Shown piece by piece: positions 2,386-14,204 of a stretch of DNA of 15,535 nt (positions are counted from its first letter, which is position 1; every line of letters starts with the position of its first letter). Source of the DNA: a virus (Duplodnaviria > Heunggongvirae > Uroviricota > Caudoviricetes). The position numbers were made by a program, and so were the translations under genes. The notes beneath the pieces were generated by a model, which was not told the DNA's origin, did not search any database, and saw nothing but the letters and a program-made list of their open reading frames with translations. Location of the stretch: IMG/VR virus record IMGVR_UViG_2634166457_000017, positions 1 through 15,535 of that record; one strand, given 5' to 3'.

Positions 2386-2670
2386 ATGACAAAAACCACA
2401 TTCATTCCCCCAACTCCAGAACAACGCCGGGCGCTTCTTGAAGAATACGGTTTTGAATTTGATCGCCGTATCCGTGAAAAGGAATGCCAGGAAATCACCA
2501 GTCTGTCGCGCTCAACTCGCTTCAAAATGGAAAATGAAGGGCGTTTCCCGCCTCGTTGTCATTTCGGGCGCAATAGCTGTGCGTGGCTTCTCTCTGATGT
2601 GCTTTGGTGGGTTCGTAACCCACCTGCTGTAGATAAAGTCAATAATCCGTACGGTAAGAAAGCTGCATAA
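2386..2670 (+). CDS. alpA: AlpA-family transcriptional regulator / excisionase-like DNA-binding protein
   Basis: Translation contains ITSLSRSTRFKMENEGRFP...WLLSDVLWWV, matching the AlpA winged-helix signature. Start placed at ATG 2386 (GGAGG 4 nt upstream) rather than the ORF-track start at 2344. Confidence 0.75.
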   Translation: MTKTTFIPPTPEQRRALLEEYGFEFDRRIREKECQEITSLSRSTRFKMENEGRFPPRCHFGRNSCAWLLSDVLWWVRNPPAVDKVNNPYGKKAA

Positions 2671-2850
2671 GGGGGGAGTTATGACACATAAAACAAAGGC
2701 GACCGGGGGCGGTCGCCAATGGGAAAACACTAAACATAAGCCCGAACATCATAGCGGTTTGCTGACTGGTGGGCAATCTGTCAGGTTTGCACCAATGACT
2801 CCAGGTTTAACCGAGGGTCATTATGGTGAATATGCTGACTTGCTGGTGGG

Positions 2851-3048
2851 CTATTCCTGCTCTTTAACATCGCCATTCTGCGATGTTTTCCAGGTATGCG
2901 ATCCCATTTTTGTGCGCCTGTACTCTTTAAGGAACTTCTCAAGGACAAACGCACATGGCGCAAATCTTTCCTGTTCTTGTTCGCTTACCGCATTTTTGCG
3001 TTGTTTTTTCCTGGATGAAGATAATTTCTTTAATGATTTGTCAGTCAT
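2851..3048 (-). CDS. Small basic hypothetical protein (uncertain)
   Basis: 65-aa minus-strand ORF in the same frame as the downstream RHH gene; weak SD; lysine/arginine-rich N-terminus. Could be a shadow ORF. Confidence 0.25.
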   Translation of the reverse strand: MTDKSLKKLSSSRKKQRKNAVSEQEQERFAPCAFVLEKFLKEYRRTKMGSHTWKTSQNGDVKEQE

Positions 3049-3300
3049 CGTAGATACCTGTAACCCTGTGCGCCACAGTTCACCGCACCACGGCGCTGGT
3101 GATGGTTACTCCTGCTCTTTGGCCTTGCGGCGCTTTAGTTCTGCTGGAGCTAATCAATCATTGTATATTAGACGTGGGATCTTTTTTTCATCGCTCCTGC
3201 ATATACGCTCATTACTGACGTGTTCATTGCTGATGCAATTTCCTAGGAGGAAAACATATAAAAACAGGGAGCCAAACCAGTATATTTTTTGCTGCATGAG

Positions 3301-3486
3301 TTATTCCTTATCAGCCTCTTTGTTTTTTTTACGCTGGCGGCGTTTGATTTCGCCGCGCATGGCAGTAACGATAAATTGCGCGTCTGTTTCGTTTTCTTCT
3401 TTTACCAAATTCATTTCGCTTAAAACTTCTAGAGGTACTCTAGCTGTTTTTTGTTGTGACTTGTTGTTGGTTGTACCTGTTGGCAT
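3301..3486 (-). CDS. Ribbon-helix-helix (Arc/MetJ-like) transcriptional repressor
   Basis: 61-aa ORF with strong SD (TAAGGAG, 7-nt spacer); segment RVPLEVLSEMNLVKEENETDAQFIVTAMRGEIKRR follows the beta-strand/helix/helix pattern of Arc repressor (EVL..EEN..); divergent from the early operon and adjacent to a palindromic operator. Confidence 0.6.
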   Translation of the reverse strand: MPTGTTNNKSQQKTARVPLEVLSEMNLVKEENETDAQFIVTAMRGEIKRRQRKKNKEADKE

Positions 3487-3551
3487 CTCTGTTCTCCTTA
3501 CTGTTAGGTGGTGTTCAGTATACGGAGAAAAAAAATAAAAAAAGACTTGAA

Positions 3552-3596
3552 GTGCAAGTCACCTAAAAGTAACCTAGATTTCAAGGTGACTTGCAC
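3552..3596. promoter_or_regulatory. Palindromic operator in divergent promoter region
   Basis: Perfect 13-bp inverted repeat GTGCAAGTCACCT (3552-3564) / AGGTGACTTGCAC (3584-3596) with 19-bp spacer, between the minus-strand RHH gene and the + strand early operon; candidate -35 TTGAAG at 3548-3553 overlaps the left half-site. Confidence 0.55.
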
Positions 3597-3674
3597 CAAA
3601 AAGCAACGCCCCGCACTGTTGGAGCAGTAACGGGGCATCTAACCACCAACGATAACGATAGTATCGAGGTAGCT

Positions 3675-3878
3675 ATGTTAAATCATACCACACACCCGCA
3701 AGGGCGGGATTCGCACAACCTGAATAAATATATCTGGCGTTTTATCGCTCTGAGCACGGCACAACCGCGCGTGATTACCATTGAGGCCACCAGCGAACAG
3801 GAAGCACGTCAGCAATCTCCTGATGGCTGCGTGATGGTATTCGCTGCCCGTATCCGTCAGGGGGGGAGCCATGCATGA
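3675..3878 (+). CDS. Small protein, possibly Icd-like host cell division inhibitor (P4 kil-region type)
   Basis: 67-aa ORF from ATG 3675 with GAGGT SD; pattern YIWRFIAL...EATSEQEARQ...FAARIRQG resembles small Icd-like proteins of P4-type elements as I recall them; position upstream of primase matches the P4 early operon layout. The ORF-track start at 3591 is TTG inside the operator and is unlikely. Confidence 0.4.
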   Translation: MLNHTTHPQGRDSHNLNKYIWRFIALSTAQPRVITIEATSEQEARQQSPDGCVMVFAARIRQGGSHA

Positions 3879-4098
3879 TGACCGTTATTTTAAATCAATG
3901 AGCCATGCAGAAAATGCACTGACTAACAGTGAATGCTTGCGGCAAATATTGCTTATCTGGCTTGATGGTTTAAGTGATGCGCCGGAAGATGAGCGTGAAT
4001 CTAATCTTGCTGGTGCGTTTATTTCATTACTCGATACGGTAATCGTCGAATTAAATAAAGCGATCGAAATTCACGATAAAAAAATAAACGCGGAATAA
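3871..4098 (+). CDS. Hypothetical small protein
   Basis: 75-aa ORF, GGGGGGAG SD immediately upstream, overlaps previous stop by 8 nt (translational coupling). Confidence 0.45.
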   Translation: MHDDRYFKSMSHAENALTNSECLRQILLIWLDGLSDAPEDERESNLAGAFISLLDTVIVELNKAIEIHDKKINAE

Positions 4099-4103
4099 AA
4101 ACC

Positions 4104-4391
4104 ATGAAACAGAAAATTTCTGGCTTTACTGCCAGCGGCCCCGCTCGTCCTGAATTTATGAACGGCGATATTTACCGCGATAAATATGGCGGTACGGTAA
4201 CGATTAAAGGCGTGGCAGAACGGCGCATCACCTACCGCCGTGAAGGTTATGAATATGACTGCGTGATGCCTGTTTATCAATTCCGGCGTGATTTTAAGCT
4301 GGTGGGCCATCGTAAAGCCGTAAATAAGAAACGTGCAGCAAGCTATATCCGCAAAATCCGTGAAATGCTGGTCGCAGGGGGTAAGAAATGA
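4104..4391 (+). CDS. Hypothetical small basic protein
   Basis: 95-aa ORF; stop overlaps primase start (ATGA), suggesting coupled translation. Confidence 0.5.
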   Translation: MKQKISGFTASGPARPEFMNGDIYRDKYGGTVTIKGVAERRITYRREGYEYDCVMPVYQFRRDFKLVGHRKAVNKKRAASYIRKIREMLVAGGKK

Positions 4392-6136
4392 AACTGGCAC
4401 CGAACGTAAAAAAACAACCACGCGGAATAAAACACAAAGACACAGAGGTAATTATTTTCGCGGGTAGTGATGCGTGGGCACATGCAAAACAGTGGCAGGA
4501 GCAGGACGGCCCCGCATCCGGCGATGATGTGCCGCCTGTGTGGCTTGGGCCAAATCAGCTTGCCGAACTGGATGCGCTGAAAATTGTTCCGGATGGGAAA
4601 AAACGCGTAAGGCTGTACCAGGCCGGAGAACTGGATTTAGTGGAGACCAAAAAGATTGGTCAGAAGCTGGCGGCGGCAGATATTCAGGATGCGAATTTTT
4701 ACCCCGAAGGGATGCACGGACAGAAATGTGAGAACTGGCGGCGCTATCTGAATGCTGAGCGTGAAAATATTGCCGCAGGGATTACCATGCCGGAACAGAA
4801 AAAATCACAACTTTCACAGATGGCAGACAGTGAACGGGCACAGCTTCTTGCTTCCCGCTTTGATGGTGTCTGCGTCCATGCAGAAAGTGAAATCGTTCAC
4901 GTATGGCGTGACGGGGTATGGTGTCCGGTCAGCACAATGGAGCTGAGCCGCGAAATGGTGGCGGTTTATTCAGAACACGGGGCCACGTTCAGCAAGCGTG
5001 CAATTAATAACGCCGTTGAAGCATTAAAAGTTATTGCCCAGCCAATGGGGGAGCCGTCCGGCGATTTGCTGCCGTTCGCCAATGGTGCGCTTGACCTGAG
5101 AACAGGAGAATTTTCCCCGCACCAGCCGGATAACTGGCTCACCACCCACAACGGCATTGAGTACACGCCGCCAGTACCAGGGGAGAATATCCGCGACAAC
5201 GCGCCAAACTTTTATAAATGGCTTGATCACGCTGCCGGAAAAGACCCACACAAGATGATGCGCATATGTGCCGCGCTCTACATGATTATGGCGAACCGGT
5301 ACGACTGGCAGATGTTCATTGAGGCCACCGGAGACGGCGGGAGCGGTAAGAGTACATTCACGCACATTGCCACACTACTTGCCGGAAAACCGAACACGGT
5401 GAGCGCCGAGATGACATCGCTTGATGATGCTGGTGGGCGTGCGCAGGTTGTCGGGAGCCGCCTTATCGTTCTGGCAGACCAGCCGAAATACACGGGCGAG
5501 GGCACGGGCATCAAGAAAATCACGGGCGGCGACCCCGTGGAGATTAACCCGAAATATGAAAAGCGATTCACGGCGGTAATCAGGGCGGTTGTGCTGGCAA
5601 CCAATAATAACCCGATGATATTCACCGAACGGGCCGGAGGCGTGTCACGTCGTCGGGTGATATTCCGGTTCGATAACATCGTAAGCGAGGCAGAAAAAGA
5701 CAGGGAGCTACCGGAAAAGATAGCGGCAGAAATCCCTGTCATTATCCGCCGCTTGCTGGCGAACTTTGCCGACCCTGAAAAGGCACGGGCTTTACTCATT
5801 GAACAGCGAGACGGTGATGAAGCACTGGCGATAAAGCAGCAGACGGATCCGGTTATTGAGTTTTGCCAGTTCCTTAACTTTCTGGAAGAAGCACGCGGCC
5901 TGATGATGGGCGGCGGCGGTGACTCTTCCAGGTACACGACCAGAAACAGCCTTTACCGCGTCTATCTGGCGTTTATGGCGTATGCCGGCAGGAACAAGCC
6001 GCTGAACGTGGCTGAGTTCAGCAAAGCTATGAAGCCAGCGGCGAAAGTTTACGGACATGAATATATAACGCGCAGGATTAAAGGGATTACGCAAACCAAC
6101 GTGACAACAACAGACGACTGCGACGCGTTTTTATAA
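4388..6136 (+). CDS. Phage/plasmid primase-helicase, P4 family (D5_N-like plus SF3 NTPase)
   Basis: 582-aa ORF; Walker A GDGGSGKST; GGGGG SD upstream; immediately followed by iteron array. No obvious TOPRIM EGYATA motif seen, so it may be helicase/initiator only. Confidence 0.85.
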   Translation: MKLAPNVKKQPRGIKHKDTEVIIFAGSDAWAHAKQWQEQDGPASGDDVPPVWLGPNQLAELDALKIVPDGKKRVRLYQAGELDLVETKKIGQKLAAADIQDANFYPEGMHGQKCENWRRYLNAERENIAAGITMPEQKKSQLSQMADSERAQLLASRFDGVCVHAESEIVHVWRDGVWCPVSTMELSREMVAVYSEHGATFSKRAINNAVEALKVIAQPMGEPSGDLLPFANGALDLRTGEFSPHQPDNWLTTHNGIEYTPPVPGENIRDNAPNFYKWLDHAAGKDPHKMMRICAALYMIMANRYDWQMFIEATGDGGSGKSTFTHIATLLAGKPNTVSAEMTSLDDAGGRAQVVGSRLIVLADQPKYTGEGTGIKKITGGDPVEINPKYEKRFTAVIRAVVLATNNNPMIFTERAGGVSRRRVIFRFDNIVSEAEKDRELPEKIAAEIPVIIRRLLANFADPEKARALLIEQRDGDEALAIKQQTDPVIEFCQFLNFLEEARGLMMGGGGDSSRYTTRNSLYRVYLAFMAYAGRNKPLNVAEFSKAMKPAAKVYGHEYITRRIKGITQTNVTTTDDCDAFL

Positions 6137-13926: not shown

Positions 13927-13931
13927 CTTTG

Positions 13932-14204
13932 ATGACTGATAACGTAGATTTGCGTCATCATAAAAATCAATTGGTTACGATTACAGGCGGCGTTGTAGCC
14001 TGTTACGATTATCGTAATCCCTTTCTGTATGACAGGGTGGCAGGTATGGTGATTTCCGCCCCTCCTTTGCAAATTGACAACGTAGTGTGTGATGTCGAAT
14101 TAACTCCGTACGTTAAACGTACGGAGTTCCCGGCAGGCTTAGGTTCCGACGAAATTCGTCGACACCTCCCGGCAGGAACAGCGAGAATTACGTCGCTGAT
14201 GTAG
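13932..14204 (+). CDS. Hypothetical protein
   Basis: 90-aa product from ATG 13932 (ORF-track start 13929 is TTG); last ORF of the island; weak RBS. Confidence 0.4.
   Translation: MTDNVDLRHHKNQLVTITGGVVACYDYRNPFLYDRVAGMVISAPPLQIDNVVCDVELTPYVKRTEFPAGLGSDEIRRHLPAGTARITSLM

Follow-up and report, generated by a model that had tools for sequence, protein, structure and literature searches.

A YlcI/YnfO-family protein and its promoter boxes as a candidate repressor-operator cassette of a capsid-forming phage-inducible chromosomal island

The divergent control region of a capsid-forming phage-inducible chromosomal island (cf-PICI) of Escherichia coli holds a gene for a 61-aa protein of the YlcI/YnfO family (3301-3486, minus strand, ATG start), predicted to be a ribbon-helix-helix (RHH) repressor, together with three short boxes that are alike inside one locus, differ between related loci and track residues 11-17 of the small protein. 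The best explanation, and one that we regard as likely, is that the protein keeps the early operon off in the manner of an immunity repressor; it would also limit its own synthesis and would be exchangeable together with its boxes. Since the mechanism is that of a conventional RHH repressor, the interest of the system lies in satellite biology and in the function of the family rather than in a new principle.

Island layout, promoters and boxes

The window (the whole stretch of 15,535 nt analysed here) is a cf-PICI of E. coli, located between gcd and hpt. It carries int, alpA and a primase gene and itself encodes a capsid, a protease, a portal and a terminase, and genes for a tail or for lysis are absent from the ORF list and family hits; it thus fits the published definition of these islands (bioRxiv 10.1101/2022.09.08.507074). 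The nearest E. coli genomes hold kindred islands at gcd-hpt (80-83% coverage, about 95% identity), where PGAP names an integrase, a primase, a major capsid protein, a prohead protease, a portal protein and a terminase large subunit. According to the ORF list and family scans, a tyrosine integrase (1-1227) is followed by a 309-aa protein with no assigned function and by AlpA (2386-2670). Just past int lies the int-alpA RNA motif RF02996 (1236-1302, plus strand; 55 bits, E 3e-9), the sole Rfam match in the whole window at gathering thresholds, with nothing on the repeat or the leader described below; in the window this RNA is parted from alpA by the gene of the 309-aa protein. The rightward operon, on the plus strand, begins with an Icd-like gene (3675-3878) and continues with orf75, DUF4222, a D5-type primase (4388-6136) and SSB, after which come the genes for the major capsid protein, prohead protease, portal, HNH and the small and large terminase subunits, with hpt at the right edge of the window. 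A second perfect 13-bp inverted repeat, forming a 27-nt palindrome (ACTCCGTACGTTT A AACGTACGGAGT, 14102-14128), is found in an ORF near the right end of the island (13929-14204).

The 61-aa gene is transcribed away from the rightward operon (Icd-like, orf75, DUF4222, primase), and int and alpA are co-oriented with that operon and converge on the 61-aa gene. For comparison, the intergenic regions of about 40 loci encoding relatives of the protein were lined up. Their layout is common: the integrase, accessory genes and an AlpA or HTH_17 protein are all aimed at the 3' end of the small gene, and Icd-like, DUF4222 and a primase or helicase gene are divergent from it. Moreover, Bro-N or AntA proteins are encoded in the alpA-side stretch (alpA and the genes downstream of it) of many relatives.

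A previous sequence-only reading had described a minus-strand ORF, its divergent orientation and a perfect 13-bp inverted repeat, all of which were found exactly at the positions given, and had taken the repeat for a single palindromic operator on -35-like elements. The left arm does abut a putative -35, TTGAAG (3547-3552, plus strand), of the rightward early promoter, P_R. The related loci, however, have instead three independent boxes of about 11-13 bp, mostly arranged as direct repeats. What stands of the operator claim is that the arms behave as operators on the divergent promoter region, the boxes co-varying with the predicted DNA-reading strand of the protein; the anatomy of one palindrome does not.

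The boxes are pseudo-palindromes of the form (G)GTG-N5-CAC(C), of about 11-13 bp each. Box O1 (GTGCAAGTCACCT, 3552-3564) is the left arm of the repeat and lies in the P_R spacer, between the -35 and a putative -10 TAACCT (TAnnnT; 3570-3575, plus strand) placed 17 bp past it. Box O2 (AGGTGACTTGCAC, 3584-3596), the right arm, covers about +2 to +14 of P_R, and its centre is about 34 bp, or three helical turns, from that of O1. The third box, O3 (GGTGGTGTTCAG, 3507-3518), is degenerate and adjoins the -10 of the small gene; overlooked in the earlier reading, it overlaps the -10/start region of the gene's own leftward promoter, P_L (putative -10 TATACT, 3517-3522, minus strand, in the block CAGTATAC, conserved in most related loci), and is proposed as an autoregulatory site. 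Elsewhere in the 15.5-kb window no further copies of the boxes with 0-1 mismatch were found, and nothing beyond chance.

Across the roughly 40 loci, which come from Escherichia, Salmonella, Citrobacter, Cronobacter, Pectobacterium, Dickeya, Proteus, Morganella, Xenorhabdus and Yersinia, the box layout is fixed: O3 and O1 are 44-45 bp apart, and O1 and O2 either 22-23 or 34-35 bp, two distances that differ by one helical turn. O1 directly follows a conserved -35 of the type TTGA(A/G/C)G, and O2 coincides with either the -10 or the start site of P_R. Nearly all related loci also have a box at the O3 offset (21 nt from the ATG), with 0-2 mismatches to their own O1/O2; the O3 of the window differs from O1 at 5 of 11 positions. 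The TAnnnT element 17 bp past the -35 is conserved in the loci with the 34-35-bp box spacing, the copy in the window being weak (3/6). A consensus promoter scan of the window called neither promoter, because they match only about 7 of 12 consensus positions; both were placed by homology to relatives whose promoters are near consensus at the same positions.

The same module of YlcI/YnfO gene, boxes and Icd-like gene is carried by EcCICFT073, the prototype and experimental model of Gram-negative PICIs, at NC_004431 1380473-1381052 (within the compared segment L044 25242-26052, which equals NC_004431 1380242-1381052). Two perfect GTGGGCCACACC boxes, 23 bp apart, are located there in the P_R spacer and at the -10 end, and the rightward promoter, TTGACG-18-TATAGT, is called by the consensus scan (10/12); being near consensus, a promoter of this type would fire constitutively without a repressor. 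The YlcI/YnfO gene of this island (NC_004431 1380473-1380652) encodes WP_000190587.1. PGAP annotates the module only as 'YlcI/YnfO family protein' and 'Icd-like', and the high-numbered tags of its small genes (C_RS30120, C_RS30125 and C_RS30800) suggest, from their numbering, that they are late additions to the annotation.

The published master regulator of these islands is an activator, AlpA: helper phages switch alpA on, AlpA activates its own expression and its overexpression induces the island (PMC6092414). The same description, from 2018, calls the global repressor of Gram-negative PICIs 'unclear' (PMC6092414). A later paper assigning a repressor to EcCICFT073 or to Gram-negative PICIs was not found in a search that left most subscription journals outside, so that an earlier description is possible. 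The 'repressor' of EcCIMP1 was considered and set aside, as it is a PerC/ANR-like protein unrelated to the 61-aa protein.

Given this role of AlpA, the boxes might be bound by an RHH regulator that only modulates, as a Cro/Arc-like early damper or as an activator of its own promoter from O1, with AlpA alone deciding between on and off. We consider this rather unlikely, although it is the strongest of the rival explanations. AlpA is required, and sufficient when overexpressed, for the induction of EcCICFT073, where the module is present (PMC6092414). Furthermore, P_R of the window is weak by consensus and might need activation. For P_L, activation from O1 is conceivable, the box being centred about 47 bp 5' of the start inferred for that promoter. 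The gene, however, is divergent from the operon that it would control, as are those of Mnt, CI and Stl; P_R is near consensus in many relatives and would fire without a repressor; and the spacer and +1 boxes occupy classic repression positions.

The 61-aa protein and the boxes that follow it

The 61-aa ORF is a gene, as indicated by its strong family conservation, by a good Shine-Dalgarno sequence (AAGGAG, 3494-3499, minus strand, 7 nt 5' of the ATG, as read from the sequence) and by purifying selection (dN/dS 0.04-0.17 against same-class relatives of 73-81% nucleotide identity), on which values the alternative that it is no gene was dropped. Its product matches NCBIfam NF041551 (YlcI/YnfO) with 62.7 bits against a cut-off of 30 (E 2.3e-17), residues 9-50 covering profile positions 1-42 of 42, and belongs to phrog_949, which has no assigned function; PGAP uses the YlcI/YnfO name for its homologues, the EcCICFT073 copy included. 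The family is small: clustering at 50% identity yields 88 clusters from 1.84 billion representatives. Its genes are nonetheless abundant in Enterobacterales, with several individual variants turning up on at least 1000 contigs each. A tblastn search of the 61-aa protein against 50,697 phage records gave zero matches. No functional study was found in the literature on YlcI, YnfO or DUF3950, in a search that was thin on subscription journals and leaves an earlier description possible. The K-12 proteins that name the family are presumably residents of lambdoid prophages, and the function of the PICI members may not hold for these namesakes.

The RHH fold of the protein is very probable, judging from sequence and profile comparison, and it is rated so rather than as proven because no curated RHH model reaches its threshold. 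The predicted elements are a beta-strand at about residues 11-17 (QQKTARV), helix 1 at 19-28 and helix 2 at 35-60; the Arc-like beta-alpha-alpha pattern seen in the sequence-only reading agrees with this predicted strand-helix-turn-helix order within about 45 residues. The family alignment has invariant N7 N8 K9 S10, A15 R16 and P18, a G-E-S/T turn, AQFIV in helix 2 and an invariant basic stretch, EIKRRQR. The G-x-S/T/N turn of RHH proteins is present family-wide, as G-E-S/T in more than 90% of members; in the window protein it reads N-E-T, with N replacing the usual G. When the family was compared with the Arc profile (hhalign), the two aligned in register (P 5e-4 to 8e-4, probability 24-32%), and the match to the CopG profile was weaker. 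In the Arc alignment, Q12, T/N14 and R16 are paired with positions 9, 11 and 13 of that repressor, its base-contacting residues, so that the DNA-facing side of the strand is expected to comprise the variable residues 12 and 14 as well as the invariant R16.

Searches with curated models were negative: the best Pfam match of the 61-aa protein was CB_ParB_C (16.1 bits against a cut-off of 27), no RHH model was above threshold for 35 remote relatives either (PSK_trans_fac reached only E 3e-4), and a profile search of PDB sequences returned insignificant matches only (3no7 at E 0.13). A distant member, P0148, naturally contains the whole RHH unit twice in tandem, with two ARFP...E-x-E-I-x-RR repeats in 122 aa, as would be expected of a fused RHH dimer. 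When this tandem protein was folded with AF2 as a stand-in for the dimer, without an alignment, the resulting model was poor (pLDDT 57).

Eleven different strand heptads (residues 11-17) are each paired with their own boxes, repeated in the promoter region. QQLNARF goes with GTGCGATTCAC in at least 13 loci of 6 genera and was seen in Escherichia, Citrobacter, Enterobacter, Pectobacterium, Dickeya, Morganella and Proteus. QK(L/I)QARA is found with TGGAnTCCA, QKMSARV with TGGGTGCCAG, QFMTARV with GGTGTGTATCA, and (Q/K)ALKARV with GTGTGGCCCAC, the latter in E. coli CFT073 and Yersinia in opposite orientations; (Q/R)QKTAR(V/I), the class of the window, is accompanied by boxes containing AGTCAC. 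Residues 12-14 are QKT in the window protein and QLN in class A, and the boxes contrast accordingly, GTGCAAGTCAC versus the class-A GTGCGATTCAC. In a Mantel-type permutation test, box and heptad differences were correlated over 19 loci (r 0.61, p 5e-5) and over the 11 distinct heptads (r 0.42, p 0.0025), a correlation to which linkage contributes, because gene and boxes are adjacent.

Stronger evidence than this correlation comes from natural recombinants, which point to the small protein as the reader of the boxes. Between the window and the related locus L001, AlpA is 100% identical and the Icd-like protein 90% identical, yet both the boxes and the strand residues differ. Conversely, the small protein and the boxes of L036 and L037 are identical, and their AlpA-type proteins are unrelated and their integrases different. 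On these two natural swaps, AlpA and the Icd-like protein were dropped as candidate binders of the boxes, and a host factor could not account for box sequences that are specific to each locus. It is therefore very improbable that one of these factors binds the boxes and that the 61-aa protein is an antitoxin or a ParG/omega-like centromere binder. The co-oriented downstream gene that an antitoxin would call for is missing in most loci, the ORF list of the window shows nothing ParA-like, and the gene's own promoter has just one of the three boxes, the other two being situated on the divergent promoter. A type II RHH antitoxin in particular was rejected on the distribution of its would-be co-transcribed partner, phrog_21027, present in the window, L001 and CFT073 and absent from most other loci.

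The recombination has left a trace in the window. Alignment with L001 reveals, at 3107-3136 (minus strand, flank 3085-3106), a 3' remnant (KRRKAKEQE*) of a ylcI gene of a different class, class A, like that of L001. Because this remnant remains, a cassette of gene plus operators (about 3137-3600) must have been swapped in by recombination, with its left edge next to the remnant.

Some further features of this leftward-transcribed region can be mentioned. Co-oriented with the repressor gene and downstream of it, a 65-aa basic protein of phrog_21027, with no assigned function, is encoded at 2851-3048 (minus strand); L001 and EcCICFT073 also have a homologue behind the repressor gene, an arrangement that most other loci lack. 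This gene is probably part of the leftward transcript, for which a strong minus-strand terminator (2717-2698) would be the end point. A 47-aa ORF with a hydrophobic N-terminal half (MQQKIYWFGSLFLYVFLLGNC...) and no family match begins 4 nt past the repressor stop (3154-3297, minus strand), and it may be spurious, since it is absent from a close Salmonella relative (L039). Finally, the strand opposite the repressor gene has a terminator-like hairpin with a T-run, which falls at corresponding codons (about 6-19) in the window (3429-3453, plus strand) and in EcCICFT073 (L044 25604-25634, plus strand). It could stop read-through from alpA ahead of the early promoter, or it could be due to chance, because the T-run stems from conserved Lys and Asn codons.

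Orientation of the boxes and the leader

The two arms of the inverted repeat in the window are 13 nt long, 100% complementary and separated by 19 nt. When the 188-bp intergenic region was shuffled 2000 times with its dinucleotides preserved, perfect inverted repeats grew no longer than 12 bp, and 13 bp was reached in 0 of 2000 shuffles. Most loci, by contrast, have their boxes as direct repeats, as in those with GTGCGATTCAC three times; the repeat of the window is a consequence of the opposite orientation of O1 and O2, which is particular to its lineage. The O2 position itself is found with both orientations of one box, as it reads GGTGCAAGTCACC in the Citrobacter loci L023-L027 and the exact reverse complement in the window, L002, L033-L035 and L039, and box orientation is therefore free. 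Such freedom fits a two-fold symmetric protein and speaks against a hairpin function.

That the repeat acts as a nucleic-acid hairpin, either in RNA, as an attenuator or terminator, or in DNA, as a cruciform at an origin, is the least probable of all the explanations, and it was dropped since box orientation is not conserved: the repeat is perfect and highly non-random, and a short minus-strand hairpin (3560-3544) with a T-run scores as terminator-like, but pairing is not conserved, the boxes of relatives being mostly direct repeats unable to pair, the O1-O2 distance shifts by whole helical turns, and a third copy lies 44 bp off, on the other promoter. O1, moreover, falls outside the P_R transcript, because the inferred start is at about 3582.

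Downstream of the boxes, both the leader and the start of the Icd-like gene are conserved. The first gene of the operon encodes an Icd-like small protein of 67 aa from an ATG preceded by a Shine-Dalgarno sequence (3675-3878, plus strand; NF033153, E 1e-19; phrog_6196). Its structured 5' leader (3608-3666, plus strand) comprises hairpin 1 (3608-3636) and hairpin 2 (3650-3666), the latter just 5' of the Shine-Dalgarno GAGG, with an almost invariant single-stranded CUAACCAC between them (3640-3647). RNAalifold on 20 loci gave 14 pairs, 12 of them with at least one compensatory double change. The leader hairpins matched no Rfam family at E up to 10, C4 and isrK included, and in the same search of positions 2600-4200 neither of these two RNAs was found and both the repeat and the leader were without a match. 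The leader could be an unannotated regulatory RNA governing the translation or stability of Icd-like. In related genomes, PGAP places the start of the Icd-like gene at a TTG equivalent to 3591, inside O2, which gives 95 aa (3591-3878); the ATG at 3675, with 67 aa, is favoured here, since the structure of the leader is conserved and a Shine-Dalgarno GAGG precedes this codon.

Proposed mechanism and comparison with known systems

According to the repressor explanation, a dimer or higher oligomer of the 61-aa protein would read the three 11-13 bp boxes with its N-terminal beta-strand, residues 12 and 14 setting the box specificity next to the invariant R16. Occupation of O1, in the P_R spacer, and of O2, at the start site, would block RNA polymerase and would so silence Icd-like, DUF4222, primase, SSB, capsid and terminase. 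Occupation of O3, on the gene's own -10, would limit synthesis of the small protein; in this island it would do so only at high concentration, because O3 is the weaker site. The 61-aa gene and the boxes together would make up an exchangeable immunity cassette. The analysis shows the anatomy, the coding selection, a sequence compatible with the fold, boxes that co-vary with the protein and their independence of AlpA and Icd-like; DNA binding, repression, the oligomeric state, the start sites of the promoters and the lifting of repression are what we infer in this scheme. Counting against it are the poor O3 of the window, its promoters, which are weak by consensus, the N at the turn of its protein, the linkage of gene and boxes and the published role of the activator AlpA in induction.

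As regards de-repression, helper-induced AlpA may drive transcription that converges on the repressor gene, silencing or bypassing the repressor; alternatively, an anti-repressor protein driven by AlpA may be supplied from the variable zone. Both routes are proposed because alpA always converges on the repressor gene and because many relatives carry Bro-N/AntA. The 'lysogeny switch' of the sequence-only reading is a label for an inference, and any switch model must accommodate the activator AlpA.

A wider reading is a serious possibility, although we hold it short of probable: a YlcI/YnfO-type RHH protein may be the missing master repressor of Gram-negative PICIs, both classical (EcCICFT073) and cf-PICIs, with immunity types arising through co-evolving strand residues and boxes and with indirect induction by the helper. 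If true, it would reconcile the 'activator-only' picture with a repressor switch of the SaPI kind. The analysis provides a concrete candidate for the missing repressor of these islands, a 59-61-aa gene with defined boxes, and a candidate function for the uncharacterised YlcI/YnfO family; engineered PICI delivery vehicles would gain orthogonal repressor-operator pairs.

Among known systems, Mnt and Arc, the RHH repressors of the immI region of phage P22, are the closest in fold and logic. The differences concern the operators, which are three separate boxes 2-4 helical turns apart here and one 21-bp operator in P22, and the protein, which has 61 aa with a long invariant basic C-terminal helix (EIKRRQRRK) and reaches no Pfam Arc/RHH model. 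The setting also differs, since the present system belongs to a satellite island and would control replication and packaging genes, whereas that of P22 controls an antirepressor. Plasmid RHH regulators, such as omega (pSM19035), CopG (pMV158) and ParG, also bind repeated short boxes, in the form of contiguous heptads; the boxes described here are 11-13 bp pseudo-palindromes 22-45 bp apart, and the window is without partition or copy-control partner genes.

In role, the closest relatives are Stl and Rpr, the master repressors of SaPIs and Gram-positive PICIs, which are larger helix-turn-helix proteins. They are encoded divergently from the early replication operon, which they silence until the helper acts (PMC6092414). 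The 61-aa gene has the same position, divergent from the early operon; its product has no sequence relation to Stl or Rpr and is predicted to have an RHH fold. De-repression by a helper-phage protein is established for Stl, and SaPIs that lose stl excise and replicate independently of a helper, with a growth defect. Furthermore, int is co-oriented with the repressor gene in Gram-positive PICIs (PMC6092414), whereas in the window int and alpA run in the direction of the early operon, towards the repressor gene.

Finally, an Icd-like first gene behind a structured leader recalls the RNA-based immunity of P1 (C4 RNA) and P4 (CI RNA), and relatives of C4 and isrK have been reported in some Gram-negative PICIs (PMC10111431). 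In contrast to immunity of the C4/isrK kind, the repeated boxes of the islands described here are part of the promoter DNA, and a protein changes in step with them.
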